Assembly (NCBI GenBank): GCA_964628065.1
Contig: CAZVLM010000001.1
Location: forward strand, 9,357-73,356
From: an uncultured Candidatus Saccharibacteria bacterium
GTDB taxonomy: Bacteria > Patescibacteriota > Minisyncoccia > Phycocordibacterales > UBA1006
Reading direction: 5' to 3'
Length of the DNA: 64,000 nucleotides
Shown here: positions 4,474-48,988 of the stretch, piece by piece
How positions within the stretch are numbered: the first letter of the stretch is position 1
Layout of the letters: every line of letters begins with the position of its first letter
Notes under the pieces: model-generated
The model's database searches: none
Told to the model about the DNA's origin: nothing
What the model saw: the letters and a program-made list of their open reading frames with translations, nothing else
Made by a program: the position numbers and the translations under genes

Positions 4474-4517
4474 AAGTTTATTATATCAAAAAACCCGCCG
4501 ATTGGCAGGTTCTAAGG

Positions 4518-16000: not shown

Positions 16001-16591
16001 TTATCTGTTTGCTAACACAAAATCTCCAAAAATGCTTATTTCACGCTGTGTGAGAGCATATCTCACGTCTTCTACACCTGCTTGTGCTCGCATTCCCTTT
16101 ACACAGGCAGTCGTTGATATTCCATATCTGAAAGAACCAAATTCATCTGGAGAACATGCGCCTTGGTGACTCCCCCAAGAAATTACCATATTGGAAATAG
16201 TAATAGTTGCTTGGGATGCGCCTTGATTCTCAGGAACACCGTTAGCTGTCTGGCCGGGCGTTAAATAATAAGACTCCGAAATCTGAGCGCCTGCCGGGTA
16301 TTTTAAACCAAACTTTGGTGACACCTTCATTGACGACTGGGTTTGAGTGGTTGTTTGAGTTGTCTGCTGTACCGTCGTAGAAGTTCCTGATGTAGATGAG
16401 GTGGGGACTGTTGTGGTTGTATTAGACGCACTTCGATCTTCATCTGCCCCTGTTTCAATCTGTCGCTGATTAATATCAACAGGAATAATAGTTGCTGTAT
16501 CTCTTCGCGCAACAAACCAAATACCTATGATAAGTAGGATGATTACAATTACGAGTAATACTGTATTAAGACTTGAGTTGTTATTTTGCAT
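16001..16591 (-). CDS. Membrane-anchored secreted protein with Thr-rich linker (paralog 1)
   Basis: Starts MQNNNSSLNTVLLVIVIILL, like its tandem neighbour. Has a TTTTVPTSSTSGTSTT linker. Confidence 0.4.
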   Translation of the reverse strand: MQNNNSSLNTVLLVIVIILLIIGIWFVARRDTATIIPVDINQRQIETGADEDRSASNTTTTVPTSSTSGTSTTVQQTTQTTTQTQSSMKVSPKFGLKYPAGAQISESYYLTPGQTANGVPENQGASQATITISNMVISWGSHQGACSPDEFGSFRYGISTTACVKGMRAQAGVEDVRYALTQREISIFGDFVLANR

Positions 16592-16625: not shown

Positions 16626-17195
16626 CTAAATATGAGCATTAATTATAATTTGATCTGGATTAAACTTTGCACGCTCAATTTCACAAGCGTTTTTTTGTGC
16701 CCCATCATAATTAGTACATTGAGAGAAACGAAGAGTAAATGTAATCTGGGTTGTGTCCGTACTGTAGGTGAAATCAGTAAAAATACTTCCACTGGCCCTT
16801 TGGGCTTTCATGTCAACACAATACATTTTTCCGTTTATTGTCCGTGGCCCAGGAATTCCGGGACAGTTATAGGGTTCGGAAAGCATCGAAACCTTTGGCG
16901 GCCAATTTTGAGCTGTAATATATGTTGTGGTAAGGGGTGCGAAAGTATATGAACCCGCTTGATTTGAGCTCGTAGAATTTTGTATAGGAGCTGGCGGAAT
17001 ATATGCTTCTTCCGTAAGAAACGGACCTGTCGGAACTTCATGAGTTCCAACTACCTCCTCGTTTGAGGTAAGCGGTATGAAGGCATCATCTTTCGGCCGA
17101 TCAGTTTTTACAGCAATCAGTATGATTCCGAAAACCACAAGAATAATCAGGACGAGTAGGAGAACCGTATTTATTTTTGAGTTGTTATTTTGCAT
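16626..17195 (-). CDS. Membrane-anchored secreted protein (paralog 2)
   Basis: Starts MQNNNSKINTVLLLVLIILV, a tandem paralog of 16001..16591. Confidence 0.4.
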   Translation of the reverse strand: MQNNNSKINTVLLLVLIILVVFGIILIAVKTDRPKDDAFIPLTSNEEVVGTHEVPTGPFLTEEAYIPPAPIQNSTSSNQAGSYTFAPLTTTYITAQNWPPKVSMLSEPYNCPGIPGPRTINGKMYCVDMKAQRASGSIFTDFTYSTDTTQITFTLRFSQCTNYDGAQKNACEIERAKFNPDQIIINAHI

Positions 17196-24574: not shown

Positions 24575-24690
24575 AGTTCTCAGTTCTGGCGACACCTACT
24601 CTCCCTCTTACGAAGTACCATTGGTGTAGCGGCGCTTAACGACTCTGTTCGAAATGGGAAGAGGTGTGACCACCGTACTAAATCACCAGA
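24575..24690 (-). rRNA. rrf: 5S ribosomal RNA
   Basis: The reverse complement reads ..GGTGGTCACACCTCTTCCCATTTCGAACAGAGTCGTTAAGCGCCGCTACACCAATGGTACTTCGTAAGAGGGAGAGTAGGTGTCGCCAGAAC, with helix I closing as GTTCTGGTG / CGCCAGAAC. Confidence 0.75.
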
Positions 24691-24799
24691 ACAGAGAACT
24701 TAATGAGAATTGTGTATAATACAGACTTATATTTTCATACTGACACATTGTGAAAATGTGTTTACTAGAATTTCTTTAACTCTTTACCCTTTGATAAAA

Positions 24800-28205
<3,406 letters not shown>

Positions 28206-31038: not shown

Positions 31039-32574
31039 TTAAGGCAAAACTGTTATCTGCTTAACAAGTGAATTGTTCGCTTCATTCGATTCATTTACTA
31101 AATTGTATCCCCCAGTTGTGCCCATTGCATAGTCATCCACTCGAACTGTAAGTCCAAAAGTTCCACTTACTCCTAATATGTTTGGCGTCGTAGACTGATA
31201 CACGTCCACATCATACGTCTGCCCCACCGCCAGCGTAACAGGATTCATTAATTGCTGTGCGCCATAACTTACGCCATTTTTAAGGAAACTAATCTGAGTT
31301 CCGCGCGGAAGGGTTGCCGTCGCACTGCCAATATTTTTAATCGTTGCATGCACCTTAAAGTTGGTATTAGGTGTTGGTTCTTTCGTCGGGTCGATGATAA
31401 CTCGTACATGCGGAGATGAGGGGGTCCATGTGAAGTCTTCTACGATTAGGTCGGGTTTTGTGATCGAAACAGGGAAATTTGTACATGGTGCAAACTTTTG
31501 AATGCGAGTATTTCCTCCGTCCCCCACATAAACATTTCCATAACTATCTATGGCAACACTAAACGCTCCCCTGAACTGCCCGTCTGCTGAACCATACGTT
31601 CCAAATTGAGTAAGGTAAATACCATTTCCTGTAAATTTTTGGATACGTGAATTATTCCTATCCACAACATACACATTGCCGACTTGGTCTGTCGCAATAC
31701 CGAATGGTTGATTAAATTGACCATTGCCACTACCGTATGTTCCCCATTTACTTATGTATGCTCCGGAAGATGTAAATTTTTGGATACGGTTATTTCCCGT
31801 ACCAACACTATCTGCAACAAAAATATTTCCGAAGATGTCTGCGGCAATACCGAGATTTCCTTGAAACTGACCGTTTCCAGTACCGTACGTTCCCCACTTA
31901 CTTAAATAAACTCCATTTGAATTAAATTTCTGAATTCTGTAATTACCTGTATCTGATACATAAATATTTCCCATGGAATCAATTGCAATTCCCCAGGGAT
32001 TTTTAAACTGTCCATCTGCAGAACCATAAGTTCCCCACTGGGTTATATAGGTACCAGTAGAAGAAAACTTCTGAATACGATGATTAGCACTATCTACAAC
32101 GAAGATATTTCCAAAAGAGTCTACTGCAATACCTTCCGGCATGGCAAATTGACCATTTCCGGAACCACTTCCTCCAAACTGACTAAGATATGTACCTCCT
32201 GAGGAAAACTTTTGAATAAACCCCGTGGTACTGTTATCTGATACATAAACATTATTTGTTTGGTCAACAAAAACCGCACCAACGGAACCAGGGAACAATC
32301 CATTTCCAGAAAACCCAACTCCTCCCCACTTTGTAACAAACTTATACCCACTCGCCGGACATGATAACGGAGCAGTAACCACCGGCCCAGTTGGAATACC
32401 TGCCGGTGTCGGCGTGTTTTGAATAGAGGCAATCTGATTATCCGACAATTTTGTAACTGCGACAGCCCGGTATAACGAAGCGGCATTACTCCCCTGGTAA
32501 TTTTTAACTACTAAAAACGCTCCAGCCGTGATGACTGCGAGCGCAAAAACTGCGAGTGTTAGTTTCTTTTTCAT
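31039..32574 (-). CDS. Secreted NHL-repeat beta-propeller protein with C-terminal CARDB-like domain (paralog 1)
   Basis: Signal peptide, repeated ..GNIYV.D..N.RIQKF.. NHL motifs, and a C-terminal PDLIVEDFTWTPS...NTNFKVHATIKNIGSATA (CARDB-like). Confidence 0.65.
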   Translation of the reverse strand: MKKKLTLAVFALAVITAGAFLVVKNYQGSNAASLYRAVAVTKLSDNQIASIQNTPTPAGIPTGPVVTAPLSCPASGYKFVTKWGGVGFSGNGLFPGSVGAVFVDQTNNVYVSDNSTTGFIQKFSSGGTYLSQFGGSGSGNGQFAMPEGIAVDSFGNIFVVDSANHRIQKFSSTGTYITQWGTYGSADGQFKNPWGIAIDSMGNIYVSDTGNYRIQKFNSNGVYLSKWGTYGTGNGQFQGNLGIAADIFGNIFVADSVGTGNNRIQKFTSSGAYISKWGTYGSGNGQFNQPFGIATDQVGNVYVVDRNNSRIQKFTGNGIYLTQFGTYGSADGQFRGAFSVAIDSYGNVYVGDGGNTRIQKFAPCTNFPVSITKPDLIVEDFTWTPSSPHVRVIIDPTKEPTPNTNFKVHATIKNIGSATATLPRGTQISFLKNGVSYGAQQLMNPVTLAVGQTYDVDVYQSTTPNILGVSGTFGLTVRVDDYAMGTTGGYNLVNESNEANNSLVKQITVLP

Positions 32575-32609: not shown

Positions 32610-34181
32610 TTAAGGCAAAACTGTTATCTGCTTAACAAGTGAATTGTTCGCTTCATTCGATTCATTTACTAAATTGTATCCCCCAGTTGTACCCATTGCA
32701 TAGTCATCAACTCGAACTGTAAGTCCAAACGTGCCAGCTGTTCCGAGAATGTTCGGAGTCGTAGACTGGTACACATCTACATCAAACGTTTGACCCACCG
32801 GAAGCGTAACAGGATTCATCAATTGCTGCGCACCGTGACTTACTCCATTTTTAAGGAAACTTATCTGAGTTCCACGCGGAAGCGTTGCAGTCGCACTACC
32901 GATATTTTTAATCGTTGCATGCACCTTAAAGTTAGTGTTCGGGGTCGGTTCTTTTGTTGGATCAGTAATAATTCGTACGTGAGGAGATGAGGGAGTCCAT
33001 GTAAAGTCTTCTACAATTAGGTCAGGTTTAGTAATACTTAATGGAACTGAAGGGATTCGAACGGGAGTACACGGAGAAAATTTTTCAATTCGGTTATTAG
33101 CTGAATCTGAAACATATATATCTCCTTGGGGACTAACAGCAATACCTACAGGAGCTCTAAACTGACCATTACCATAACCACTACTTCCCAACTGAGCTAT
33201 ATAAGCTCCATTCTGATCAAATTTCTGGACGCGCTCTTGATAATTATCCACCACATAAATATTTCCATAAGAATCAACATCGATACCTACTGGATCCATA
33301 AATTTTCCATTTCCAACATATCCCCTGCTACCGATCTGTGAAAGATATTGCCCTGTTGAGTTAAACTTTTTAACCCCATAACCAGTAAGGCTCGTGATAT
33401 AAATGTTTCCCGCTGTATCAAGAAATACATCGTTGTCTACACCTGTTGGATTTGAAAATTGCCCGCTTGCAGAACTTCCCGTCCCAAACTGGCTTAAATA
33501 TCCTCCATTCGACTTAAACTTTTGAACACGATTATTATACCTATCAACAACATAAATATTTCCCGCTGTATCGATCGCAATACCTCCGGGGCCATTAAAT
33601 TGTCCATTATTAGCGCCAAGCGTTCCCCATTGGGTAATATAATTTCCCTGAGAATCAAATTTTTCAACTCTATTGTTACCAGTATCAACTACATAAACAT
33701 TTCCTGTCATATCAATTGCAATGCCTCCTAAAGAGTCACCTAATGCGAAATTTGGAACCTGAAATTGTCCATTCGCTGATCCTTGCGTTCCCCACTGTAA
33801 TATATATTGACCACTTGAATTAAACTTCTGAATACGATTGTTACGAGCATCATGAACATAAACATCCCCCGATGAATTAACGGCTATATATCCGGGGATA
33901 GCGAACTGGCTATTGCCTGAACCATAGACGCCCCACTGAGAAACATAATTATACCCGCTCGCCGGACATGATAACGGAGCAGTAACCACCGGCCCAGTTG
34001 GAATACCTGCCGGTGTCGGCGTGTTTTGAATAGAGGCAATCTGATTATCCGACAATTTTGTAACTGCGACAGCCCGGTATAACGAAGCGGCATTACTCCC
34101 CTGGTAATTTTTAACTACTAAAAACGCTCCAGCCGTGACGACTGCGATCGCAAAAACTGCGAGTGTTAGTTTCTTTTTCAT
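32610..34181 (-). CDS. Secreted NHL-repeat beta-propeller protein with C-terminal CARDB-like domain (paralog 2)
   Basis: Same architecture as paralog 1. The first ~78 aa and last ~140 aa are near-identical to it at the nucleotide level, while the central repeats are divergent. Confidence 0.65.
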   Translation of the reverse strand: MKKKLTLAVFAIAVVTAGAFLVVKNYQGSNAASLYRAVAVTKLSDNQIASIQNTPTPAGIPTGPVVTAPLSCPASGYNYVSQWGVYGSGNSQFAIPGYIAVNSSGDVYVHDARNNRIQKFNSSGQYILQWGTQGSANGQFQVPNFALGDSLGGIAIDMTGNVYVVDTGNNRVEKFDSQGNYITQWGTLGANNGQFNGPGGIAIDTAGNIYVVDRYNNRVQKFKSNGGYLSQFGTGSSASGQFSNPTGVDNDVFLDTAGNIYITSLTGYGVKKFNSTGQYLSQIGSRGYVGNGKFMDPVGIDVDSYGNIYVVDNYQERVQKFDQNGAYIAQLGSSGYGNGQFRAPVGIAVSPQGDIYVSDSANNRIEKFSPCTPVRIPSVPLSITKPDLIVEDFTWTPSSPHVRIITDPTKEPTPNTNFKVHATIKNIGSATATLPRGTQISFLKNGVSHGAQQLMNPVTLPVGQTFDVDVYQSTTPNILGTAGTFGLTVRVDDYAMGTTGGYNLVNESNEANNSLVKQITVLP

Positions 34182-36631: not shown

Positions 36632-36785
36632 AACAAAAATTGACTAGTCTTATAAAATTTTGCACACAAATGAGATTTACCTCGGTAGCTAATTAAGTTC
36701 GCCCTTCGACAAGCTCAGGGTAAACAGCTACTGTCTTTGATGTACAACGGGTTCTATATTACTCATATTTATGAATAAGTCAAGA

Positions 36786-36813
36786 AAACACCCCCGACTA
36801 ATCGGGGGTGTTG
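36786..36813. terminator. Terminator hairpin (AACACCCCCG-ACTAAT-CGGGGGTGTT)
   Basis: Downstream of 36814..37410 and upstream of the rplJ leader. Confidence 0.55.
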
Positions 36814-37410
36814 TTACTGAATTTTAAGGGCTGAAATACGGGCACGCCTGATGTAGGAAGTCGTGCCGGTGGGCCATGAGCCCCACATCAGCGAATACGT
36901 TGTCGTAGTGGTCGGACTAATTTGTTGCATATCACTCCATGATCCATAGGTGCCAGTATTTGAATACGCGATACTGTAGGCTATTTCTATTGCTCCCTCA
37001 TTAAGTTGGACCCTCGCACCTGCATCAATAGAACTATTGAATACATCGCAGTTTGAAAAAAGCAGATAGGTACCTGGTGGAAGCGTAAGCGACACACGAG
37101 TCTGCATGACGCTTGTAGACGTACTCATTTGAGCATTACTTGAAATGTAATAAGTAATCGGATTAGAACTTATTCCTTGAAATACTCTTTTAAGCGTGTC
37201 TACATCTACCGCACAAAGCATTCCTGCGGAATCTACCACTGCAACCCTCTTAACGCTTGCCAATTTTTTTACAGAATCCACTTTAAAGGTTCCTGCAACA
37301 TGAAGTGTAGCCTGAGGATTGTTCGTTCCGATCCCCACCCCGCCTCTTTGTGAAAATCCGTTCATACTTATTAATAGTAATAAGCAACATGAGATTACGT
37401 TCTGTTTCAT
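36814..37410 (-). CDS. Secreted protein sharing a C-terminal domain with the collagen-like protein
   Basis: Signal peptide. The C-terminal ...[13 protein letters not shown]...DAGARVQ...EIAYSIAYSNTGTYGSW...[27 protein letters not shown] is alignable with the C-terminus of 37434..38402. Confidence 0.45.
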   Translation of the reverse strand: MKQNVISCCLLLLISMNGFSQRGGVGIGTNNPQATLHVAGTFKVDSVKKLASVKRVAVVDSAGMLCAVDVDTLKRVFQGISSNPITYYISSNAQMSTSTSVMQTRVSLTLPPGTYLLFSNCDVFNSSIDAGARVQLNEGAIEIAYSIAYSNTGTYGSWSDMQQISPTTTTTYSLMWGSWPTGTTSYIRRARISALKIQ

Positions 37411-37433
37411 TCTTACATTATTTAAGTAAAAAA

Positions 37434-38402
37434 TTATTGAGTCTTAACAGCCACAAGTCGCGCTCTCCGAATATATGAAGTTCCATTTGGCCACGAACCC
37501 CAAAGTAAGTCATAAGTACTTACGGTAGTAACTTGAACTTTTTTTAATGCATACCACGAACCAAACGTGCTGGTATTTGAATACACTATTCCATAAGCAA
37601 TCTCAGAAGTATCCCTCATGATTTGTGCGCGCACTCCTGCGTCAACCGTTGGATTGTATGCTTCCAAATAACCTTGGAGTAAGTAATTGCCTGGTGGAAG
37701 AGTTAACGATACGCGCACTTGAAGAGTTTGCGTAGTAATACTAGAGATTGGCTCCATTTCCGCGTAATAAACTTGAGGAATAGCATCAGCCCCTGTCGGA
37801 CCAGTAACGCCAATTGCGCCACTCAATCCAGTATTGCCTGGCAATCCTTGAGGGCCGGTTGGGCCTTGGATTCCTGCAATACCGGTCGGTCCTGTCGGAC
37901 CGACCGAGCCAGCTAATCCGTCCGTTCCGGACGGACCCGTTGCGCCAGTAATACCAGTTGCACCAGTTGGGCCTTGGGCACCCATTGGACCGATTGCACC
38001 CGTAGGTCCCACCATGCCATTACCTGAAAAAAGTGCATACGGAACACTCAGAAGTTCTGTGGTTCCCATATCCATAAAATTCCCTCCCCCATTTTGATCA
38101 AGAAATACCTGTAAATATTTAAATCCTGATCCCCAATCAACCGTTGCAAGATTGCCACTACTACCAATTTGGGTCGTCACCAATCCGAACTGGTTAGTGA
38201 TACTAGAAACAATTTCACTGTAGACAATCGTTCCTGTTGATGATGCTTCATGAATAACAAATTTCAGTGTGATCACGCGATTTGCAATAATAACACCTTG
38301 TGCATCCCGCACTACTGCTTGATAATTCATTTTTTGAGGAATCTGAGATTTTAGAAGAATATGCAACATTCCCAATAAGGCGACAAATGTAATTTTTTTC
38401 AT
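37434..38402 (-). CDS. Collagen-like triple-helix-repeat protein with globular N-terminal and C-terminal domains
   Basis: A ~75-aa run of uninterrupted G-X-Y triplets ([74 protein letters not shown]) and a signal peptide. Confidence 0.6.
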
Positions 38403-38535
38403 ATTTTAGTTTTTTTAAATGAACAATTTCTCGACCAGTAAACCAAACACCCTCTCAAGAAATTACTAAGAAAAAGTAAAGCCTAGATAAAACCAATCCG
38501 CTGGAAAAAGTGTCAAAAATCCGTATACTGGAACT

Positions 38536-39831
38536 ATGAAAAACTACCGAAAACAAGCCCTCTTTTTGGGAGACGTTCTCTCATTTATTGCAGGATTCTT
38601 CCTGTTTGCCCTCATTGTTTACGGAACTGCTCGTTTTACAGAAGGCGTTTCTCTCCATGCCCTTCCATTGGCAATCCTTGCCATTATATGGATTGCGGTT
38701 TTCTTCATCTTTAACTTTTACGATATTCAGAAATCGAAACCAAACTTAATTTTCTTGAGAAATTTTTTCATTGCCGCACTCATCATGCTTGGTATTGGAT
38801 TTATTTTCTTTTATATCAACCCTGTCACAAAGATCAGTCCTAAAACAAACCTTCTGATTTTCGAAGGTGTCTCACTCGCTCTTATTCTAGGATGGCGCCG
38901 ATTATTCTATTCTGCAACATCAAATATTTTTAGAAGCCGTTTTGCGATTGTGTGCTCCGATGAACGACATCAGACATTGGTCGATGAAGTTTCAAAAAAC
39001 CCTCACTTGGGATTCATATGCGTCGGTACCTACTTAACCCTAGCTGATTTTCATGCGAGTAATGTTGCTGTCGACCTGCTTATTATTCATAAGACAGCTA
39101 TGGAGGAAACAGAACTTTTGGAAAAAACACTGGCGAGCAACATTGATGTAATCGACCTTGCGGAAGCTTATGAAAACATTCTATATAAAATTCCCGTGAA
39201 CTTTATTAACAGTAATTGGGTTATTCACTCTATTAAAAAACAAGGAGATTTTTTCTACTATGCCATTTCACGAGTCATTTCAATCGTGTTTGCGATTGCT
39301 GTATTAATAGTCACTTCTCCTATTTGTCTCGCTATCGTGATTGCTATGAAAATCGAAGACGGTGGACCTATTATTTTCAAAAATGACCGCGTGGGACTTA
39401 ACGGAAAAGTATTTTATCTGTATAAGTTCAGATCCATGATTGTGAACGCTGAAAAAAATGGCGCTGAATGGGCAAAGGTAAACGATTCTCGAATTACAAA
39501 AGTTGGAGCGATTACCCGAAAACTCCATGTTGATGAAATCCCTCAAATGATTAATTTACTTAAAGGAGATTTAACACTGGTAGGACCACGACCTGAACGT
39601 CCAGACTTTGTGGCCGATCTCGAAAAGCAGATCCCCTATTACTTCATGCGACATACGATCAAACCTGGCTTTACCGGATGGGCACAAATTAAATTCCGAT
39701 ATGCTCGAACCATCATGGACTCTCAGGAAAAATTTGAGTACGATTTGTATTACATTAAAAATAGAAACTTTTTCTTGGATGTTGGTATTATTTTGAAGAC
39801 CGCCCAGATCGTGTTCACCCACCTTGAATAA
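38536..39831 (+). CDS. Polyprenyl-phosphate sugar phosphotransferase (bacterial sugar transferase / WbaP-like)
   Basis: N-terminal TM helices. The C-terminal catalytic domain reads ..PIIFKNDRVGLNGKVFYLYKFRSM....DEIPQMINLLKGDLTLVGPRPE. Confidence 0.8.
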   Translation: MKNYRKQALFLGDVLSFIAGFFLFALIVYGTARFTEGVSLHALPLAILAIIWIAVFFIFNFYDIQKSKPNLIFLRNFFIAALIMLGIGFIFFYINPVTKISPKTNLLIFEGVSLALILGWRRLFYSATSNIFRSRFAIVCSDERHQTLVDEVSKNPHLGFICVGTYLTLADFHASNVAVDLLIIHKTAMEETELLEKTLASNIDVIDLAEAYENILYKIPVNFINSNWVIHSIKKQGDFFYYAISRVISIVFAIAVLIVTSPICLAIVIAMKIEDGGPIIFKNDRVGLNGKVFYLYKFRSMIVNAEKNGAEWAKVNDSRITKVGAITRKLHVDEIPQMINLLKGDLTLVGPRPERPDFVADLEKQIPYYFMRHTIKPGFTGWAQIKFRYARTIMDSQEKFEYDLYYIKNRNFFLDVGIILKTAQIVFTHLE

Positions 39832-41092
39832 TATGATTGCGTACCTGAAGAAAAGATTTCTAGAACGAAGCGCAACTGAACATACGGTAATAAAAAATAC
39901 CGGCTGGCTTTTTGTTGGTGAAGTTGGAAGTCGTATTGCACGAGGCGCGCTTGCAATCATTGCGGCACGAATGCTGGGTGTGTCAGGACTAGGAGCATGG
40001 TCATACGCTGTTGCTCTTTCTGGGTTCTTTACCTTCTTTGAAGATGCTGGCATCGGCATGTTCGTAACACGTGAGTTTGCAAAAGGAAGCGATTCGAAAG
40101 AGTCTATTTTCAGTACTGCGATTGTTCTAAAATTAGGACTACTTGCCCTTGCAATTGCTCTATTCCTCGGTATTGGACCACTCATCAGTGATATTCCTGA
40201 GGCCACAGCAATTCTTCCTATTGTTGCATTGGTATTTGTTTTCGATTCGCTACGAGGATTCTTTTTCTCTATTAGTAGAGCCGAGCAGAAAATGGACACT
40301 GAGTCGAAAGTTCAAATTGTAACGAGCTTGCTGGTAGTGGGACTCGGCGTACTGTTCATGCTCATTTCTCCCACCCCGCTGTCTCTCGCGCTTGGGTATG
40401 CGGCAGGTGGTGGCATTGGCTGTCTGCTTATTTTCCTATCAGTCAAAAAATACATTCCTAACTTGGTTACTTTTTTTTCAAAACAATTGTTTGTACATAT
40501 TTTTAAATCGGCATGGCCTTTTACCATTCTTGCGATTTCAAACATTGTTATCTTTAGTACGGACACCATCCTCCTTGGACATTTTGCGAGCGTGCATGAA
40601 GTGGGTCTGTATGGTGCCGCGAGTCGACTGGTTCAAATTTTTTATATCCTTCCTGCACTCTTTGCAACAGTTACGTTTCCAGTATTCGTTAAAAAATCTG
40701 TCGGTGAAACCGGGATTTGGTTTGCACTTAGAAAGTCGCTCCTCCTTATGACGGCGGTCATGATTCCATTGGTTCTGGTAATGATGTTTGGATCGCATCT
40801 TATTATTAAAATTTTGTTCGGCGCTGAATATGCTCCTGCGGGAATATTATTAGCGGTCCTCTCCCTTTCCTATATTCCTGTATTCATCGGAACCTTATTG
40901 AACAATGTGGTATTTGCGGAGAATAAGCAAAAACAATTTGTGGTCGCGAATATTATTGGAATGGTTATTAACTTAATTCTTAACTTGATCCTTATTCCTA
41001 AGTATCACGCTCTTGGGGCATGTGTATCAACAGTTACCGCCCTTTCGGTAATTACGGCTATTACGGCAATTAAGATGAGATTTTCTAAGTAA
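39824..41092 (+). CDS. Wzx-like oligosaccharide flippase (MOP superfamily)
   Basis: 422 aa with ~12-14 TM helices. Overlaps the preceding gene by 8 nt. Confidence 0.65.
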   Translation: MNNMIAYLKKRFLERSATEHTVIKNTGWLFVGEVGSRIARGALAIIAARMLGVSGLGAWSYAVALSGFFTFFEDAGIGMFVTREFAKGSDSKESIFSTAIVLKLGLLALAIALFLGIGPLISDIPEATAILPIVALVFVFDSLRGFFFSISRAEQKMDTESKVQIVTSLLVVGLGVLFMLISPTPLSLALGYAAGGGIGCLLIFLSVKKYIPNLVTFFSKQLFVHIFKSAWPFTILAISNIVIFSTDTILLGHFASVHEVGLYGAASRLVQIFYILPALFATVTFPVFVKKSVGETGIWFALRKSLLLMTAVMIPLVLVMMFGSHLIIKILFGAEYAPAGILLAVLSLSYIPVFIGTLLNNVVFAENKQKQFVVANIIGMVINLILNLILIPKYHALGACVSTVTALSVITAITAIKMRFSK

Positions 41093-41104
41093 GTATAAAT
41101 TGAC

Positions 41105-41134
41105 AAATACACTTAAATGGTGTATTTTGTTTTT
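41105..41134 (+). terminator. Terminator hairpin (AAATACAC-TTAAATG-GTGTATTT, then TGTTTTT)
   Basis: Immediately downstream of the flippase gene. Confidence 0.5.
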
Positions 41135-41152
41135 GAAACTAAAAACTGAATA

Positions 41153-41761
41153 ATGAGATACAAAACATTACTAACACTCATCTACGGCGAGACGCGAGAC
41201 CGTAAAAGGTCGGCATCGTGGGTTGTATTTTCAACCAACAAGCCGAATTATATCGTGCTCTACCTTGCAGCAGGGAAACTTCCCTTCTCAAGAATACTCC
41301 CACTTAAGGAATTGATGCTTAACGATATTCGAAAGATGCTCGCAGCGAAAGGTTATGTTGAATCTGTGAAGCGGGATCAGGTTTACACCTTCAATAAAGG
41401 CACTCACGAAATACACATCATCCTGCTCGGCGGAAACGCGTGGGGAACGATCGAAGAAACGTACTTGCTTATCAAGCATCTTTTGCTGGATTACCGAGAA
41501 ACCATCCATGTTTTCTCCTCACGCAGCCACTTGCCGAGAATAAAGAGAATATGGGCGCTGTTCGCACCAGAATGGAATGTGGAATGCATTTCAGCAGACG
41601 AAGATATGAGCGACAACCTGAAGTCATTTGAATCGAAAAAAGATACTCAGACGACCGTGTTCTATTGGGTGTATCGTCATTTCGGCGAAACAGGCTTCCA
41701 TATCATTTCGTACTTGAAAAACTTAATCGTAAACCGGATATTGAACCTTCAGGGCGAATGA
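41153..41761 (+). CDS. Hypothetical protein (possibly DUF218/YdcF-like)
   Basis: 202-aa ORF in the glycan locus. The family call is tentative. Confidence 0.3.
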   Translation: MRYKTLLTLIYGETRDRKRSASWVVFSTNKPNYIVLYLAAGKLPFSRILPLKELMLNDIRKMLAAKGYVESVKRDQVYTFNKGTHEIHIILLGGNAWGTIEETYLLIKHLLLDYRETIHVFSSRSHLPRIKRIWALFAPEWNVECISADEDMSDNLKSFESKKDTQTTVFYWVYRHFGETGFHIISYLKNLIVNRILNLQGE

Positions 41762-41781
41762 CCAACTTACAACAAAACATT

Positions 41782-41808
41782 AAGCCGCCTTAGAAAAAGG
41801 CGGCTTTC
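41782..41808. terminator. Bidirectional terminator (AAGCCGCCTT-AGAAA-AAGGCGGCTT)
   Basis: 10-bp stem between convergent genes. Confidence 0.6.
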
Positions 41809-41832
41809 TTATGAAAAAATTATTTAACAAGA

Positions 41833-43041
41833 TTATTTAACAAGTCTGTGGAAAATATTCCTAAACTCTTGCTGTGACTGTTCCGATGAATAATTTTTCT
41901 CTGCAAAGACTCGAGCATTGTTCCCTATCGTCTTCCGGAAAGACTCATCATCAAACACCTTGTTTATGTCGGCCACCCATTTTTTTGTATCCTGCTCCGG
42001 CGCAATCAAAATATTCTTTTCATGCTCCAAGCCTGGAATGCCTGCGGTAGCTGCAGGTGTTGTAATAACTGGAATTCCCATCGCCATTGCTTCCAAAATT
42101 TTTGATGGAGTTCCTCCGGCAAAGCGGATTGGCGCAATCATCAAATTACACCTCTTTGCAACATCCCACACTTCCGGAACAAATCCAGTAAAAACAATTT
42201 GCGAATCTTCAGGATAATTTTGAAGCGATCCTTTTTTTCCAAGCACGTAGAGCATTACCCCGGGAATATTCTTTTTAAGATCTGCCCAAATATCATTCAG
42301 GAAGAACAGGAGCGCGTCTCGATTCGGCTCATATCCCAATCGCCCCATAAAGAAAATATTTTTCTCAGTCGAATCAAGGAGTGACTGATTCCCTATCTTT
42401 GGGCCATGATGAATACATGCAAATTCTATTTCATGTTTATGAGTGTAAAACTTAGAATCGAGGAGGTAGTGGCGGTCGTGTTCTGATACCACATTGAACT
42501 GGTAAAAAGACTCCAGAACTTTAGCTTCATACTTTGTAACACGGTACCCCTCGAAAAGATAAAAGAGTTTTTTAGGAAGCATCAACTGCTTGAGTGATGT
42601 CTTATAATTAAGAGAAATCGCATCGTTAAAATCTATAAGCATTTTCTTTTTAAGATCTGGATCGTACTTGATAAAGTATTCAGTCATGCGAATTTCATGC
42701 ACATAAAAAGCGTCATAGTTTCCAACATTCGTGTCTAACCATTTTTGCGCGTTTCTGAAATGAAACGATTCTGCTTGGAATGGAAGTCCTGACCAAAGCG
42801 CAGGAATAGCACTCATGCCAAACTCTATGAGAGAATACTTAAACAAATGCACCTTTCCAAAATTCTTCTCTAAGTATTCAACCTGATCTGCTGTAACCGC
42901 ATCAATCGTTACAATAAAAAACTCAAGTGAAAAATCCTTCGCAAGTCCTTCGATGACATTGTCCAATATTTTATATCGCGTACCATCAATCGCGGGATAC
43001 GGCATTCGAAATAATGAAATAAGAAGCTTAGGCTTTTGCAT
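41833..43041 (-). CDS. Glycosyltransferase family 1 (GT4-like)
   Basis: The C-terminal ..EAMAMGIPVITTPAATAGIPGLEHEKNILIAPE.. matches the GT-B E-x7-E region. Confidence 0.7.
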   Translation of the reverse strand: MQKPKLLISLFRMPYPAIDGTRYKILDNVIEGLAKDFSLEFFIVTIDAVTADQVEYLEKNFGKVHLFKYSLIEFGMSAIPALWSGLPFQAESFHFRNAQKWLDTNVGNYDAFYVHEIRMTEYFIKYDPDLKKKMLIDFNDAISLNYKTSLKQLMLPKKLFYLFEGYRVTKYEAKVLESFYQFNVVSEHDRHYLLDSKFYTHKHEIEFACIHHGPKIGNQSLLDSTEKNIFFMGRLGYEPNRDALLFFLNDIWADLKKNIPGVMLYVLGKKGSLQNYPEDSQIVFTGFVPEVWDVAKRCNLMIAPIRFAGGTPSKILEAMAMGIPVITTPAATAGIPGLEHEKNILIAPEQDTKKWVADINKVFDDESFRKTIGNNARVFAEKNYSSEQSQQEFRNIFHRLVK

Positions 43042-43924
43042 ACAATTTACGATGATTATTTTGGCCTATGCGTCGCTCAATAAAATAGGTATAGCGACCA
43101 ATAATGCAACGAATGAGAAACCAATAAATATTTTTTACACCGAATTTCCTTCTGAAAATATCTTTATTTTTAATAAGAAGTCGTGCAGTATTTTTCCATA
43201 CCTGCCATTCATACACGTGTCGCTTTTTACGAGAACCTCCCGATTGATTCACGGCTGTATTTTTCAAATGAAATGATAACGTATCTGGAATAAGCCATAG
43301 CTTAAATCCCGCATCCCATGCGCGTAAAAAGAAATCTGTTTCCTCACGGAATGCATTACCACCAAACAACGGGTCGTATTGAACCGACTTAAAGACCTCT
43401 CGCTTCATAAGCATATTCGAATGAAGGCGACTTACCTCTTCTGGTTTTTCTACAACACGTTCAAAATACCCTTCGAAAGGAATATGAGTAAAAATAGGGT
43501 CACGATCGAAATCAGCAAGCTTTTTTGCTGCTTCCATGGTCTGATCTGCATACATATTTACTCTTCGTCCAGCGATAATATCAGCACCATGCTCTTTCAT
43601 TTTTTCAAGCAATATCTTGAAATGATTTTCAGGAAGCAGTACATCATCTTCTCCCATAAAAATATACTCTGCGGATGACAGACTGATACCAACATTTCGA
43701 ATATTAGGAAGCGTCGACTTTTCAGTCATACGGTGGTAAATAATTTGTCCTGGGTGAAGTCGAGATAGCTCATTCACATACTCTGTGGTGTTATCCGTAC
43801 TACAATCGTCAACAAAAATGATCTTCCCTACACCCTCTTGGGAGAAATAAGAATCCATTACCTTGGTTAAGGCTTTGGCTCGGTTATACGTGGGCATTAC
43901 CACATCAATAAGGCCTTGTTTCAT
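43028..43924 (-). CDS. Glycosyltransferase family 2
   Basis: VVMPTYNRAKAL...IIFVDDCSTDNT..FMGEDDVLLP gives the GT-A DxD signature. Confidence 0.7.
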   Translation of the reverse strand: MKQGLIDVVMPTYNRAKALTKVMDSYFSQEGVGKIIFVDDCSTDNTTEYVNELSRLHPGQIIYHRMTEKSTLPNIRNVGISLSSAEYIFMGEDDVLLPENHFKILLEKMKEHGADIIAGRRVNMYADQTMEAAKKLADFDRDPIFTHIPFEGYFERVVEKPEEVSRLHSNMLMKREVFKSVQYDPLFGGNAFREETDFFLRAWDAGFKLWLIPDTLSFHLKNTAVNQSGGSRKKRHVYEWQVWKNTARLLIKNKDIFRRKFGVKNIYWFLIRCIIGRYTYFIERRIGQNNHRKLYAKA

Positions 43925-43964
43925 AGGCTTATTATATCAGAAAATATGATAAGCTGTACTTACT

Positions 43965-44897
43965 ATGAAATCAGCCATCTGCCCCATTTGCCAATCAAAA
44001 ACAACGCCCCTCCTTACAAAAAGCAGCCATCCGTTGACGCAGTGTCCCTCATGCGACCTTATTATGATGGATCCGCAGCCAACTCCAGAGGAACTTAATC
44101 GCTTTTATTCCCCGGAGGCGGGCTACCACGCCGAATATTCGGATGCGTTTATCGCAAAACAGCGCGCGCAGTTCAAGCTTCGCATTAATGCAACCGAAAA
44201 ACTTATTCCTGGGTCATTACGACCTGTAAGAGTTCTTGATATTGGTGCTGCGAACGGACTATTCCTTAATGTGGCAAAAGAGCATAATTGGAACACTGAA
44301 GGTATCGAAATGAATCGATCAAACGCCGACCATTGCCGAAAAAATGGCCATATTATGACAACAGGAAGCTTTGATGATTATACCGCTACACCTGATTCTT
44401 TTTCAGTTGTTCACATGGGAGATGTTATTGAGCACATGCTTGATCCACGTGCTGCTGTAAAAAAATCTCATACTATTCTTGCGCAAAAGGGTCTCCTTGT
44501 TATGGCAACACCAGATGCCGATTCACTTTTTGCAAAACTAAGTTTGCCGATCGCTCGACTTCTTCACATCAGCTGGCCACATGCCCTCCCTCCTGCGCAC
44601 ACATTTCAATTCTCAGAAGATAATCTTACGCTCATGCTGAAACAGGAAGGTTTCGAACCTGTTCATCGCCACTCGCTTCCAATTGGGTTCATGGAAGAAA
44701 TGCGAGAAACAGAATATTTTGAAACGATTTATACTTATATTAAAAAACGCCGAGGCACTCTCGGAGAATTTATTAAAGCCTCTATCATGTTCTGTGTTTC
44801 TGCTGTTATTTATTTCATCCCTTGGGCCATCGGAGAAATCACCTTCCCTCTTACTAGAAAAGGTGCCCATGTTACCGTCTGGTATCAGAAGAAGTAA
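43965..44897 (+). CDS. Class I SAM-dependent methyltransferase with N-terminal Cys4 zinc-ribbon
   Basis: CPICQSK...CPSCDL, then motif I VLDIGAANGLF. Confidence 0.65.
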   Translation: MKSAICPICQSKTTPLLTKSSHPLTQCPSCDLIMMDPQPTPEELNRFYSPEAGYHAEYSDAFIAKQRAQFKLRINATEKLIPGSLRPVRVLDIGAANGLFLNVAKEHNWNTEGIEMNRSNADHCRKNGHIMTTGSFDDYTATPDSFSVVHMGDVIEHMLDPRAAVKKSHTILAQKGLLVMATPDADSLFAKLSLPIARLLHISWPHALPPAHTFQFSEDNLTLMLKQEGFEPVHRHSLPIGFMEEMRETEYFETIYTYIKKRRGTLGEFIKASIMFCVSAVIYFIPWAIGEITFPLTRKGAHVTVWYQKK

Positions 44898-45888
44898 TCT
44901 CATTAAGTAGTGCACTGTACTTTTGATTGAACTGGTCGATGCTGTGATATTCAATAATGTAATTGCGTAGCTCTTGCGAGAGCTGCGCTTTTTCTTGTTC
45001 ACTTTTATGCACCAGCTTTTTAAACGCTTCAAAGTATGCGTCCCCTGTTTGGATATGTACAATACAATCAGCAAATAATCCCTTTTCCTTGAGCTCCGGC
45101 ACGAGCCCTACAGGACTCGCCAGGAACGGCAATCCGCACGCCATAGCATCCATGAGCGCGTACGAACATCCTTCATGAAGACTCGGCAATAAAAACACTT
45201 GAGATTCTTTATAAAGCACCGAAAGTTCTTCCTGTGATTTTCCCTGTGGAACCACCAAATCCCATCCTATACTTCTCAAATAAATGTCCATCTGCTCGAG
45301 TATTTCTTTTCCTTTTGCAATTTCAAAACGACCCACAAAGAGTGCTTGGTTTTTCTTTGTTTTGTCTGAGGGGGCGAAAAGATTTGTATCTACGGCATTA
45401 AGGATGACTCCTACATCTTTTCTTCCGTAAAACATACTCACACTTTTTGCGGTCTCTTTTGATACAGCAATACATTTTATCGCGCGTCGTGCGGCCAATC
45501 CTTCAAAAGATCCCCAAATATAGCGCTTCATAACATACTTAAAAATATTCCTGCTTCTATCAATACGCACCGCAGCGCGCGCAAAGGTGCCATGCTGTAC
45601 GTTTATGGTTGGCTTTCCCGCAATATTCCAACCAAGCATTCCATTAGTAACACAAACATCGAAGCCTTGTTGGAGCGCTTTCCTTCCAAGGAAATACCCT
45701 AACGCCGGCTGCTCAAAGCCTGCATATTTTTTAAGTCTTACTATTAAAGCTTGTAACGGACTCAGATCTTCTTTTGAAAGAATGGATACCTTGTGTCCAT
45801 TCTTAATAAAACAATCTTGCAAGTAAAAACTGAAGCGCTCTACGCCCCCAGACTGAGACTTTGAAGATGAGAGAATGATAATATTCAT
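44872..45888 (-). CDS. Glycosyltransferase family 1
   Basis: ..FVGRFEIAKGKEIL...EGCSYALMDAMACGLPFLASPVG.. matches GT-B. Confidence 0.7.
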   Translation of the reverse strand: MNIIILSSSKSQSGGVERFSFYLQDCFIKNGHKVSILSKEDLSPLQALIVRLKKYAGFEQPALGYFLGRKALQQGFDVCVTNGMLGWNIAGKPTINVQHGTFARAAVRIDRSRNIFKYVMKRYIWGSFEGLAARRAIKCIAVSKETAKSVSMFYGRKDVGVILNAVDTNLFAPSDKTKKNQALFVGRFEIAKGKEILEQMDIYLRSIGWDLVVPQGKSQEELSVLYKESQVFLLPSLHEGCSYALMDAMACGLPFLASPVGLVPELKEKGLFADCIVHIQTGDAYFEAFKKLVHKSEQEKAQLSQELRNYIIEYHSIDQFNQKYSALLNEITSSDTRR

Positions 45889-46853
45889 TACTTGTACTCA
45901 GGAATTTTCCCGAGTGTTCCCGTTAAAATACGAAATACGTTTTTAGCATGCGCCATTGCAATAGCTCTGTAAGGATATTTTTTGAAGAGTGACATAGGAA
46001 ATGCGATAAGCACTTTAATTGACGAAGTAACTACATAAATAATCTTTGCGGCAAGCACCGTTGGCCAGCCGTAATAATTCTTGAAGTAGAACAATGTTCC
46101 GATGTATGAAGCCCGAAGCACTGCATCGCGATCGCGCACTGACGACTTTCCACCCGCATGCACCACTGATGTTGGCGCGTAAAGAATGATCTTTTTCCCA
46201 TTGTTTTTCATTTTCTTCGCAAGGTCAATCATGTCTGCATACGACATGAAATACTGCGGATGAATGCCTCCCACCTTAAGGAATTCTGCCTTTCGTGCCA
46301 TAAAGCACGCACCTCCAATCCAACCCACTTCTGTTGGCTCTGTAATCTTTAGTCGTGCCTGCTTTCGTTTTTTAATCCACGGAAAGATTTCTAGATACTT
46401 TGACTCAAGCGTCTTTCCTAATAGCTCATTCCAAGGCGTAAGATCTTGTCCATACGTTTCTTGCGCTACGCCATATTCATCGGTAATTTTTGGGCCAATA
46501 ATTCCAATCTCTTGATGCTGTTCAAAATATTCAAGCATGCTCAGCATTCCGGGCACCGAAAGTGTCGTGTCGGGATTGATCGAAAGTGCAATATCTGCCT
46601 TTGCAAGGTCAAAGCCCTGAGTAATGCCCACAGCAGAGCCCACATTTTTATCATTAAAATAAAGTCGATATCGGGGATCGTTTTCACAGTGCTCTTTTAA
46701 GTAAGCAATCGTTCCATCTTTTGAAGCATTATCAATGATAATTACCTCTACTTGATCCTTATCAAATTTTTCAACCGCCGCAAGGCATTCCCCTATTTCC
46801 TTCTCAGAAAAGTACGTAACAATGATAATAGACAACCGTTTCGATTCGTTCAT
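45888..46853 (-). CDS. Glycosyltransferase family 2
   Basis: LSIIIVTYFSEKEIGECL...IIDNASKDGT matches GT-A. Confidence 0.7.
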   Translation of the reverse strand: MNESKRLSIIIVTYFSEKEIGECLAAVEKFDKDQVEVIIIDNASKDGTIAYLKEHCENDPRYRLYFNDKNVGSAVGITQGFDLAKADIALSINPDTTLSVPGMLSMLEYFEQHQEIGIIGPKITDEYGVAQETYGQDLTPWNELLGKTLESKYLEIFPWIKKRKQARLKITEPTEVGWIGGACFMARKAEFLKVGGIHPQYFMSYADMIDLAKKMKNNGKKIILYAPTSVVHAGGKSSVRDRDAVLRASYIGTLFYFKNYYGWPTVLAAKIIYVVTSSIKVLIAFPMSLFKKYPYRAIAMAHAKNVFRILTGTLGKIPEYK

Positions 46854-46869
46854 ATATAAGCCGATTTTA

Positions 46870-47676
46870 TCACAGCCCTACTACCTTAGCAACGCGCTTG
46901 ACGCTATATCGAATGCGGTATATAAGCCAGCCCACAATATAGACAAGGTTCATTGGAAACGCTGAATGTTTTGCTCGATCCCATATAATCCTGAGGACTC
47001 GCTCATAATTCTTAAAAATACTCTCATACGAAACATCTCGGCGGAACCGATAAAACGCCAACGGCATAGTTATGGCATAAAAATTACCTAATGCTGACAG
47101 CTTCAGCCACATATCGTAATCCGCAACCATCATAAGATCATAGACTTCAGTAAAGCCTCCTATGCGATCAAACGCCCATTTTGGAACTACCGCTGTCGAT
47201 AAAGTAATCATGTTTCGAAACGGAAGAACCCACAGTAAATTTCCCGAGTATGGCTTACCCAATTCTTTTTGCATCGTCTCCCAAATAAGGTTTGAATATT
47301 GGTCCACCAAATAAGGATCGGTATAACACATGACACATGTTGGATTTGATTCTAATGCGTCAACTTGTCGCGCAAGTTTCTCATCATGCCAATAATCATC
47401 AGCGTCTAGAAACGCCAAATACTTCCCTTTCGAAAGTTTTGCACCATTATTTCGAGCAACTCCACATCCTGCATTTTTTTGAAAAAGGTAAATAATACTG
47501 CCGTCTTTTATATAAGAATCTAGAACCTGTCGTGTATTATCAGTTGATTCATCGTCTACTACAATAACTTCTCGGTGTTTATAGGTCTGGTTGAAAACAC
47601 TTTCAATTGCCTGTATAATCGTAGCACTACTGTTGTATGTTGGAATAATGACACTTACCCACGGTTCCTGTTTCAT
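46870..47676 (-). CDS. Glycosyltransferase family 2
   Basis: VSVIIPTYNSSATI...VVDDESTDNT...FLDADDYW matches GT-A. Confidence 0.75.
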   Translation of the reverse strand: MKQEPWVSVIIPTYNSSATIIQAIESVFNQTYKHREVIVVDDESTDNTRQVLDSYIKDGSIIYLFQKNAGCGVARNNGAKLSKGKYLAFLDADDYWHDEKLARQVDALESNPTCVMCYTDPYLVDQYSNLIWETMQKELGKPYSGNLLWVLPFRNMITLSTAVVPKWAFDRIGGFTEVYDLMMVADYDMWLKLSALGNFYAITMPLAFYRFRRDVSYESIFKNYERVLRIIWDRAKHSAFPMNLVYIVGWLIYRIRYSVKRVAKVVGL

Positions 47677-48951
47677 ATGAATTATTTACCTATTATGCCT
47701 TCTTGGCTCAAAATTGCAACCTGGTTTTTGCTCCTCTCTATTGCAACCATTTTTATTAAGAAGCCCGCTCTCGTCTTTCCAGTGAATATCAATGATGTTT
47801 TTTTAGCGGTAAGTTTCTTGAGTTTTTGTATTGCTGCTTATAAAAAAGAATTGCATATTACTATTTCAAAGAAGAGTTGGATACTTACTGCCCTGATCGC
47901 CTTTTTTCTTATTATAGGATCTATTATTACTTATATCGTTTTCCATAAGCTTACTACAGGAGCGCTGATTGCCTATGCAAGAATTATATCTGTAGGAATC
48001 ATATTTTTTGAGTTGTATATCATCGCGCGAAACGATACCTCTTTTACTTACAAGGCTTTTCTAGCACTTTGTTTTTCGAGCTTCTTTCTTCCTTTAATGT
48101 TTTACATGCCAATGCCAATACGTTCATTTTTTCTTGATCCAAGCGGCCACCGACTTGTAGGACTTCTCGTCGATCCAAACTATTTCGCAAGTTTTCAATT
48201 GGTAGTTACCGCTCTATTGTTTTGGTTTACGATTAGGCCAACAGCTGCAACCATGGGGTTTGTTGGTAAAATTTTATCGTTCGTTCTTTTGTGTTTTTCT
48301 ATCGGATCAATCCTTTGGTCTGGTTCACGAGGAGGATTTTTGGGCTTAGTAGTCATGCTTGTTATGCTTATTGGGTTTGCGGTCTGGAGACTTCCTGTTA
48401 AAAAAAGCTTGTTATCTGTTTTTCTCATTTTCATAGCGTGTATTGGAGGATACTTCGTACTTCCCTCTTATGCGAAAAATAGCGTTGCGCTTCGGATATA
48501 TAATATTCAAAATCCTTATTATGCGCCGACAAAAGAGGTTCCTTTCTTGGAAAAAGTTTCTGGGCAGCAAGACCGTTTCGCATTATGGCAAAGTTCACTG
48601 GTAACAATAATTCACAATCCTTTTGGTTACGGTCCTTCGTATCATGAGGCTGTTAATATTTATGGCGAGCCCAATGATCCCCACCGTGTAGCCCATAACA
48701 CTCTACTAGAAATACTCCTTACGGGAGGTATTGGACTCTTATTAGTTATCGGCATTGCATTATGGCTTATCTTTGCAAATGTTTCTATTAGAAACTCGTT
48801 TGGATCACTGCATGTATTAATTGCTCTACTAGTGGGACTGGGAGCCTCTTCTCTCCTTCTAGATTCCTTATGGACACGGTGGATTTGGATTGTACTGGCA
48901 CTAATTGCAGCAGTCATCTATAATTCCAAGAAGTATTCCGAGAAAAATTAA
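47677..48951 (+). CDS. O-antigen ligase / Wzy-like polymerase family membrane protein. The ORF track start at 47575 would overlap the divergent gene.
   Basis: Multi-TM protein with a Wzy_C-like WSGSRGGFLGLVVMLVML motif. The ATG at 47677 abuts the divergent start at 47676 (CATATG). Confidence 0.55.
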   Translation: MNYLPIMPSWLKIATWFLLLSIATIFIKKPALVFPVNINDVFLAVSFLSFCIAAYKKELHITISKKSWILTALIAFFLIIGSIITYIVFHKLTTGALIAYARIISVGIIFFELYIIARNDTSFTYKAFLALCFSSFFLPLMFYMPMPIRSFFLDPSGHRLVGLLVDPNYFASFQLVVTALLFWFTIRPTAATMGFVGKILSFVLLCFSIGSILWSGSRGGFLGLVVMLVMLIGFAVWRLPVKKSLLSVFLIFIACIGGYFVLPSYAKNSVALRIYNIQNPYYAPTKEVPFLEKVSGQQDRFALWQSSLVTIIHNPFGYGPSYHEAVNIYGEPNDPHRVAHNTLLEILLTGGIGLLLVIGIALWLIFANVSIRNSFGSLHVLIALLVGLGASSLLLDSLWTRWIWIVLALIAAVIYNSKKYSEKN

Positions 48952-48988
48952 AATAAAAAACATCCTTTTAAAAGGATGTTTTTTATTT

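Follow-up and report, generated by a model that had tools for sequence, protein, structure and literature searches.

Among described proteins, those most readily compared with the gene pair reported here are the mosaic adhesive trimer (MAT) fibres of Bdellovibrio bacteriovorus (NF053851; PDB 8ond, 8ojn and 8okw). These are proteins of ~600–1,100 aa with a beta-rich domain, conserved and ~130 aa long, that immediately follows the signal peptide, and a beta-helical or coiled shaft, often with an S74 chaperone-protease. The N-terminal domain, which had no structural homologue in the PDB, is thought to lie adjacent to the cell surface, and the tips are exchangeable, some of them being TNF-like. 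Of the TNF-like tips, Bd2439 was crystallized with N-acetylglucosamine bound and screened on a glycan array, and the pocket of Bd2734 was modelled to fit a terminal monosaccharide (Caulton et al. 2024, PMC10769870). Collagen is never mentioned in that paper (PMC10769870). A second point of comparison is provided by BclA and F-BclA of Bacillus and by the C1q family, in which a collagen stalk is combined with a C-terminal C1q/TNF-like head. A third group, the TNF-like lectins, includes Photorhabdus PLTL (9ib6), a glycan-binding lectin (PMC12914763), and the N-terminal domain of Burkholderia BC2L-C; these and the C-terminal domain of Chlamydia Pgp3 are soluble or stand-alone, with neither a collagen stalk nor MAT parts. 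Here a 64-kb stretch of DNA from a member of the Patescibacteria (the window, meaning the whole stretch analysed) is described in which two adjacent open reading frames (ORFs), ORF2 and ORF1, encode a collagen-stalked and a stalkless protein with parts homologous to those of MATs.

Compared with the MATs, ORF2 is short (322 aa) and its shaft is a collagen triple helix, as predicted from sequence; a distant homologue of the MAT N-terminal domain is found at residues 20–128. The MAT type of shaft repeat (GxVGIGT...LHVxG) is present in ORF1, in a single copy. There is no sequence similarity between the heads of the pair and the Bd2439 or Bd2734 tips, and whereas MATs belong to a predatory diderm the pair belongs to a patescibacterium. 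The combination of stalk and head is shared by ORF2 with BclA, F-BclA and the C1q family. However, the N-terminus of BclA is an exosporium-targeting region whilst that of ORF2 consists of a signal peptide and a MAT-type domain, and BclA is found in sporulating Bacillus and Clostridium whilst the organism studied here is non-sporulating. None of the BclA-type NCBIfam models gave a match. Assignment of ORF2 to the Scl1/Scl2 or Lcl adhesins was rejected, with scores of 38–46 bits against cut-offs of 325–500 and a match confined to the Gly-X-Y run; no LPXTG motif occurs in the ORF2 sequence. Podophage fibre tips (PhiM1 gp47, 8vbx; cyanophages A-1(L) and A4) differ in that the sequence match is non-significant and the locus has no phage context. 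In a literature search, no pertinent publication that connects collagen-like proteins with Patescibacteria came up.

The stalk of ORF2 had been noticed in a first-pass annotation, made by a model from the sequence alone, as about 25 uninterrupted Gly-X-Y triplets. Counting gave 26, without interruption, and the protein scored 51.1 bits against the Pfam Collagen family (PF01391; cut-off 27.2). In 25 tallied triplets the X position was occupied by Pro in nine and the Y position by Thr in 11, with GPT occurring in six. A run that proved to be a frameshift artefact would have refuted the annotation, but the remaining two frames across it are stop-rich, and in the orthologue from the related locus L007 all Gly residues are kept in a stalk of 25 rather than 26 triplets with 65% of residues identical. 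This conservation of Gly, together with a low ratio of nonsynonymous to synonymous substitution rates (dN/dS, given below), indicates that the run is a conserved coding feature and not an artefact of frame. The rise of a collagen triple helix is 0.286 nm per residue, and if such a helix forms the 78 residues of the ORF2 stalk would extend for ~22 nm. Conservation between the window and L007 is greatest in the head (94% identity), intermediate in the N-terminal domain (76%) and lowest in the stalk.

Over their C-terminal ~118–120 residues ORF1 and ORF2 are 50% identical (BLASTP E = 1e-38), bearing out the earlier observation that ORF1, which has no Gly-X-Y run, shares the C-terminal domain of its neighbour; the head motifs quoted at that time are all present. 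Monomer AlphaFold2 modelling of ORF1 with a 24-sequence alignment produced an all-beta domain at residues ~85–198 with pLDDT values of 93–97, and thus not the disorder that would have refuted the annotation. The best fold matches were to lectins. Structural neighbours (match score in brackets) were the Photorhabdus TNF-like lectin (12.8), the Chlamydia Pgp3 C-terminal domain (12.5), EDA-A1 (11.6), the C1q domain of Caprin-2 (10.9), C1QL1 (10.6), the F-BclA tip (10.4), ExsFA (10.2), collagen VIII NC1 (9.8), BclA (9.7 and 9.4) and the Bdellovibrio Bd2734 tip (9.5). The C1q/TNF jelly-roll predicted for this domain was therefore recovered at the level of fold, with C1q, TNF-like and BclA structures among the neighbours. 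At the level of sequence, neither protein gave a match to C1q or TNF in Pfam at E values up to 1, and the head had no Pfam or NCBIfam match. A head profile searched against PDB sequences gave one match, to the tip of PhiM1 tail fibre gp47 (8vbx_R), which covered the full domain but was non-significant (E = 0.07). On sequence criteria the head is a new family on the TNF/C1q fold.

The two heads of the window are not recent duplicates. Identity of the ORF2 head is 50% to that of ORF1 and as much as 56% to the short forms of other genomes, and a neighbour-joining tree places this head on its own branch; the identity matrix and the tree rule out ORF1 as a recent tandem copy of the ORF2 head. The LPPGxYLL and ...KIQ motifs at the end of the domain had suggested cargo of the type IX secretion system (T9SS) carrying a Bacteroidota C-terminal sorting domain. 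This candidate was also rejected, as no Por_Secre_tail-type domain was matched on the C-terminus in Pfam or NCBIfam at E values up to 1 and the fold is a TNF-like jelly-roll, not the Ig-like C-terminal domain of T9SS cargo.

The N-terminal parts of the two proteins are both related to MAT fibres, but to different portions of them. In the family of the ORF2 N-terminal domain, for which a model of ORF2 is beta-rich, 42 of the 43 members match NCBIfam NF053851 (Bdello_MAT_N), the best at E = 1.7e-14; the domain of ORF2 itself matches at E = 2.6e-5 and 24 bits, against a curated cut-off of 60. ORF1 lacks a MAT-type N-terminal domain. Instead, positions 18–62 of its family profile match the Bd2133 MAT fibre (8ond) at E = 4.8e-9 over three repeats, and also match 8ojn (E = 6.6e-6) and MYRF (7dc3; E = 0.031). 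One copy of the shaft repeat is present in ORF1, and ORF2 has collagen in its place. In the monomer AlphaFold2 model the N-terminal module of ORF1 is of low confidence.

As for the repeat itself, GxVGIGTxxPxxxLHVxG, a search with the full-length profile of the short family found it in no fewer than 49,008 representative proteins. Since these proteins match the shaft repeat alone, the full-length search says little about the distribution of the head. Giants occur amongst the repeat-bearing proteins, with lengths of up to 7,920 aa and as many as 51 copies; the head was sought among the giant repeat proteins listed and none carries it. A Pfam scan of two repeat proteins, P0093 and P0042, found the repeat covered by no model; P0093 resembles a virus-type fibre protein.

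The putative signal peptide of ORF2 was read from the sequence, and residues 2–20 of ORF1 form a helix in the AlphaFold2 model. In 27 of the 28 proteins encoded in the chromosomal slot described below, the leader closes with a small residue and then Gln, 1–5 residues ahead of the fibre motif. Leader ends of this kind obey the 'Q-rule', a pattern that has been described as peculiar to Bacteroidetes (PMC5837995); the remaining exported or membrane proteins of the window do not show it. Residues 20–128 of ORF2, its N-terminal domain, have 75 homologues at 39–66% identity, and every named one is from Bacteroidota (Chitinophagales, Sediminibacterium, Odoribacter and a 'collagen-like protein [Bacteroidetes bacterium]'). 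An AQ/SQ leader junction is common to ORF2 and these Bacteroidota proteins, in which the domain is followed by Gly-X-Y repeats or by the fibre repeat. Identity to Bacteroidota proteins reaches 60%, the level at which ribosomal protein L10 of this genome is identical to that of the next Paceibacteria genera. The Q-rule leaders, absent from other exported proteins of the window, and this level of identity in the N-terminal domain together suggest that the fibre modules were acquired horizontally from Bacteroidota.

The Bacteroidota collagen-like proteins (for example P0177 and the L095 locus) share the N-terminal domain over its full length at up to 60% identity and, as in ORF2, it leads directly into Thr-rich Gly-X-Y repeats after an AQ/SQ junction. 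They differ beyond the stalk. In L095, the one Bacteroidota example traced to its end, further fibre repeats and then an unrelated C-terminal domain follow, and the TNF-like head that the window encodes turned up in none of the Bacteroidota collagen-like proteins with this N-terminal domain. Gene calling gives the L095 fibre gene (4001–5850, Bacteroidota genome GCA_947475165.1) as two ORFs, 154 and 456 aa long, split within the Gly-X-Y run by a change of frame that is either a real frameshift or a repeat assembly error; splitting of this type may explain the short fragments that make up most database homologues.

Searches for further members of the family showed a narrow distribution. ORF1 retrieved 13 homologues among 5.8 billion protein clusters, and a head-only profile likewise retrieved 13 proteins, all of them short forms of 190–210 aa or the collagen form; restriction of the head to this clade is as seen with word-seeded searches. 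A single-sequence scan of genome contigs with ORF1 gave no match, and a DNA-pattern scan of metagenomes for sequence encoding WP.G..SYIRRAR gave six loci, of which one was real and already known. Taxonomy and synteny were obtained with an alignment search based on ribosomal protein L10, using one genome per species. All of its matches were from Patescibacteria, with the labels Paceibacteria, Nomurabacteria or Kaiserbacteria; six loci were close, at 77–82% identity, and the next best stood at 58%.

On every contig of sufficient length that carries it, the short gene was located between divergent Bac_transf/flippase genes and rplJ-rplL. The arrangement held in assemblies from NCBI (GCA_964952885.1), JGI (3300045311, 3300045315 and 3300059832) and Logan (DRR274965 and SRR23702490) and in GTDB representative genomes (those of L009 and L011). 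The content of this slot varies among the six closest genomes (L009–L014). A TNF-like head on the N-terminal module occupies it in the window and in L001–L009 and L011, with L009 and L011 carrying the short form, whilst the collagen gene is limited to the nearest relatives of the window (L006–L008; P0011 and P0013), P0013 and the L006–L008 genes being near-identical counterparts of ORF2 in other assemblies. In L010 (2657–3757) and L012 (4700–5812), again upstream of rplJ, an ORF1-type signal peptide and fibre-repeat module are joined to a different head of ~300 aa. Identity between these second-type heads is 27% (E = 4e-37). No Pfam family matches either of them, and a PDB search with that of L010 found nothing. 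The slot is empty in L013 (185 bp) and contains other small genes in L014. Sequence comparison of these loci demonstrates that heads have been exchanged in the same slot among relatives, and head variation beside rplJ parallels the exchangeable C-terminal tips that characterize MATs.

The two genes have the shape of a two-gene operon, with a spacer of only 23 bp between them and a strong hairpin after ORF1, and are probably co-transcribed. The hairpin has a G+C-rich stem of 11 bp and a 4-nt loop and is followed by UUUUCUU; the 56-nt stretch containing it has a folding energy of -21.3 kcal/mol (z -4.96), which none of 200 shuffled sequences equalled. A terminator pattern scanner did not flag this hairpin, although it is clear on folding, and no hairpin was seen by eye in the spacer. 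A promoter scan of the 133-bp intergenic region upstream detected no promoter for ORF2. The sole promoter-like match there, at 38502–38529, is on the plus strand and faces the Bac_transf gene, and such matches were no more numerous in the scanned region than in shuffled sequence. Between the window and L007, dN/dS was 0.15 for ORF2 and 0.08 for ORF1, values indicating that both genes are under purifying selection, and dN of the fibre genes was 5–7 times that of neighbouring housekeeping genes.

Table 1. Positions, strand and basis of assignment of features of the fibre gene pair (numbering of the window)
Feature	Position	Strand	Basis
Hairpin and U-run resembling an intrinsic terminator, 2 nt past ORF1 stop	36782..36812	-	RNA folding
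ORF1, stalkless short fibre protein, 198 aa, stop codon included	36814..37410	-	ORF list
ORF1 TNF/C1q-like jelly-roll head, residues ~85–198	36817..37158	-	AlphaFold2 model
ORF1 N-terminal module, residues 21–78: one shaft repeat GxVGIGTxxPxxxLHVxG and linker	37177..37350	-	Profile match
ORF1 putative signal peptide, residues 1–20, ending ...NGFS, then Q	37351..37410	-	Slot-protein leaders and AlphaFold2 model
ORF2-ORF1 spacer, 23 bp	37411..37433	-	Sequence
ORF2, collagen-stalked fibre protein, 322 aa, stop codon included	37434..38402	-	ORF list
ORF2 TNF/C1q-like head, residues 207–322	37437..37784	-	Homology to ORF1 head; fold from ORF1 model
ORF2 collagen-like stalk, residues 129–206, 26 G-X-Y triplets	37785..38018	-	Sequence and Pfam
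ORF2 N-terminal beta-sandwich domain, residues 20–128, relative of MAT N-domain	38019..38345	-	
ORF2 putative signal peptide, residues 1–19, then Q	38346..38402	-	Basic N-terminus, hydrophobic core, Ser-Gln end
Divergent intergenic region between ORF2 and Bac_transf gene, 133 bp, presumed promoter region	38403..38535	.	Inferred role

The first-pass annotation had left the choice between a surface filament or adhesin and a fibre derived from a prophage. The former is favoured, since both proteins appear to be composed of MAT-family parts, from which an adhesive function may be deduced. We consider it reasonably probable that the pair encodes secreted, probably trimeric surface fibres of adhesive or lectin type, built from MAT parts and expressed from a two-gene chromosomal operon. 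This reading builds on what the comparisons above establish: how the domains are arranged, which fold the head has, that the N-terminal parts are homologous to MAT parts and that the chromosomal position is syntenic. In ORF2 the signal peptide would be followed by the MAT-type beta-sandwich, the collagen stalk of ~22 nm and the TNF/C1q-like head; in ORF1 the signal peptide would be followed by just one MAT shaft repeat and then by a diverged version of this head. By analogy with the heads of C1q, BclA and collagen VIII NC1, the head may nucleate the trimer and set its register. It may in addition present the distal surface at which binding takes place, the target probably being a glycan or some other surface epitope of a partner cell, with the TNF-like lectins and the Bdellovibrio tips Bd2439 and Bd2734 serving as models of binding. 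Retention of the fibre on the envelope of the producing cell would fall to the ORF2 N-terminal domain. The exchange of heads in the slot, the raised dN and the lectin-type structural neighbours all fit a recognition fibre of the MAT kind, and the parts shared with the prey-grabbing fibres of Bdellovibrio make it likely that these proteins are attachment devices and not phage remnants.

Several considerations weigh against this reading. Some proteins with the TNF/C1q fold are not adhesive, capsids and signalling ligands among them, so that the fold does not prove lectin activity. By its score the ORF2 N-terminal domain is a distant homologue of Bdello_MAT_N that lies outside the curated Bdellovibrio subfamily, and MAT N-terminal domains have been described in a diderm. 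ORF1 and most of its orthologues have no recognisable anchoring domain by which a trimer of the short form would stay on the cell. Bacterial collagen stalks require stabilising features. Leader cleavage, trimer formation, surface display, the identity of the anchored end and the ligand are all points that we infer.

A passive structural coat or nap, comparable to that formed by BclA on the Bacillus exosporium and with a head that serves only for trimerisation or stability and binds no specific ligand, is an alternative that we regard as rather improbable. The homology of both N-terminal parts is to MAT parts, not to BclA's exosporium-targeting region; lectins are the best fold matches; and heads are swapped among close relatives in a slot that is sometimes empty. 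Heads that are exchanged and a slot that can be empty accord better with a recognition device that varies than with a coat that is essential. Slightly less probable again is release of the proteins, ORF1 above all, as soluble factors, in the manner of Photorhabdus PLTL or Chlamydia Pgp3, each acting as a TNF-like lectin or effector on a host or neighbouring cell. The want of a recognisable anchor in ORF1 is consistent with release, but ORF1 retains a fibre-type shaft repeat and ORF2 has the MAT-type N-terminal domain, which according to the literature is a cell-proximal anchor.

Derivation from phage, either as a prophage tail-fibre remnant or as a phage-derived fibre cassette, appears very improbable and gained no support from neighbourhood, synteny or searches of phage genomes. 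PHROGs tail-fibre families do match ORF2, but almost wholly over the collagen run (residues ~128–206); the weak match of the head profile to the PhiM1 gp47 tip extends over the full domain; and Foldseek searches of viral models returned many C1q-like heads of phages and giant viruses, at 10–20% identity. On these models the viral likeness is one of fold and not a sign of phage origin. The check for prophage genes near the pair found none among the ORFs scanned between 19 and 53 kb; the ORFs of this ~35 kb were housekeeping, envelope or glycan-synthesis genes or had no match. The flanks scanned contain rRNA, L10, L7/L12, SecDF, FtsW, NHL proteins and a glycan cluster, and the position next to rplJ is identical in independent assemblies of related genomes. 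Neither globular domain was matched by tblastn in 50,697 phage genomes, IMG/VR viral contigs contained no match to whole ORF1 or to the ORF2 head, the window has no tRNA, and in a 2-kb profile the GC content does not change markedly at the locus. Least credible of the alternatives is an assembly chimera in which Bacteroidota DNA has been mis-joined into a patescibacterial contig. Signal peptides that obey the Bacteroidetes Q-rule (PMC5837995) and an ORF2 N-terminal domain with its closest relatives in Bacteroidota are what such a chimera would give, but the order Bac_transf, fibre gene(s), rplJ, rplL recurs across unrelated samples and assemblers and the GC content is unremarkable.

A more far-reaching proposal is that this is a presumably episymbiotic clade of Patescibacteria which has taken MAT-type modules from Bacteroidota and maintains a head-swapping hot-spot beside rplJ, with a TNF-like sequence family peculiar to the clade and a long, collagen-stalked version among the heads, that the fibres recognise and hold a host, and that Bacteroidota, being the source of the modules, are that host. 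Taken as a whole we think this scenario unlikely, if somewhat less so than a passive coat.

By its gene sequences the host genome is patescibacterial, of Paceibacteria type, and the window contains rplJ, rplL, SecDF, FtsW, two NHL-repeat proteins and a protein with an NYN domain. A 23S rRNA gene (24826–28189, within 24584–28189 on the minus strand) is ~440 nt longer than the model and adjoins a 5S rRNA gene; a group I intron (RF00028, 57 bits) lies within it at 25122–25338. Neither a 16S rRNA gene nor a tRNA gene was found in the 64 kb. Unlinked rRNA operons with an intron are typical for bacteria of the candidate phyla radiation (CPR). Just past rplL is a second duplicated pair of surface-protein genes (31039–32574 and 32610–34181, both minus strand), tandem paralogues encoding NHL-repeat beta-propellers with a C-terminal CARDB domain; the first ~50 residues of these proteins, N-terminal membrane anchor included, are near-identical with two conservative differences. 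On the other side of the fibre genes, and adjoining them, a surface-glycan cluster of 13 kb (38536–51061) comprises genes for Bac_transf and a Polysacc_synt flippase, for five glycosyltransferases and a methyltransferase, and for two Wzy_C proteins, of which one has TPR repeats. Its products might glycosylate the Thr-rich stalk, as is the case in BclA, or might synthesize a ligand of the N-terminal domain. Small tandem paralogues of 196 and 189 aa (16001–16591 and 16626–17195, both minus strand) each begin MQNNNS... and continue into a membrane helix, and the longest ORF of the window encodes 1,007 aa (8377–11400, minus strand).

How ultra-small CPR/Patescibacteria find and hold their hosts is largely unknown, as are most of the hosts of Paceibacteria. 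The MATs of Bdellovibrio are the only experimentally studied bacterial fibres of the family that recognise other cells, and parts of the proteins described here are homologous to them. The locus encodes a compact candidate attachment fibre which, at 198–322 aa, should express easily. Were the fibre a mere coat protein it would be an ordinary bacterial collagen-like protein; interest would be higher if it is a host-attachment device and if its Bacteroidota ancestry indicates the host, and the apparent origin of the modules in Bacteroidota provides a testable hint at the partner organism. With the pair, the building-block principle of MATs is extended in three respects: collagen is used as the shaft, the phylum is one whose envelope is very different, and a new sequence family is added to the TNF/C1q fold.

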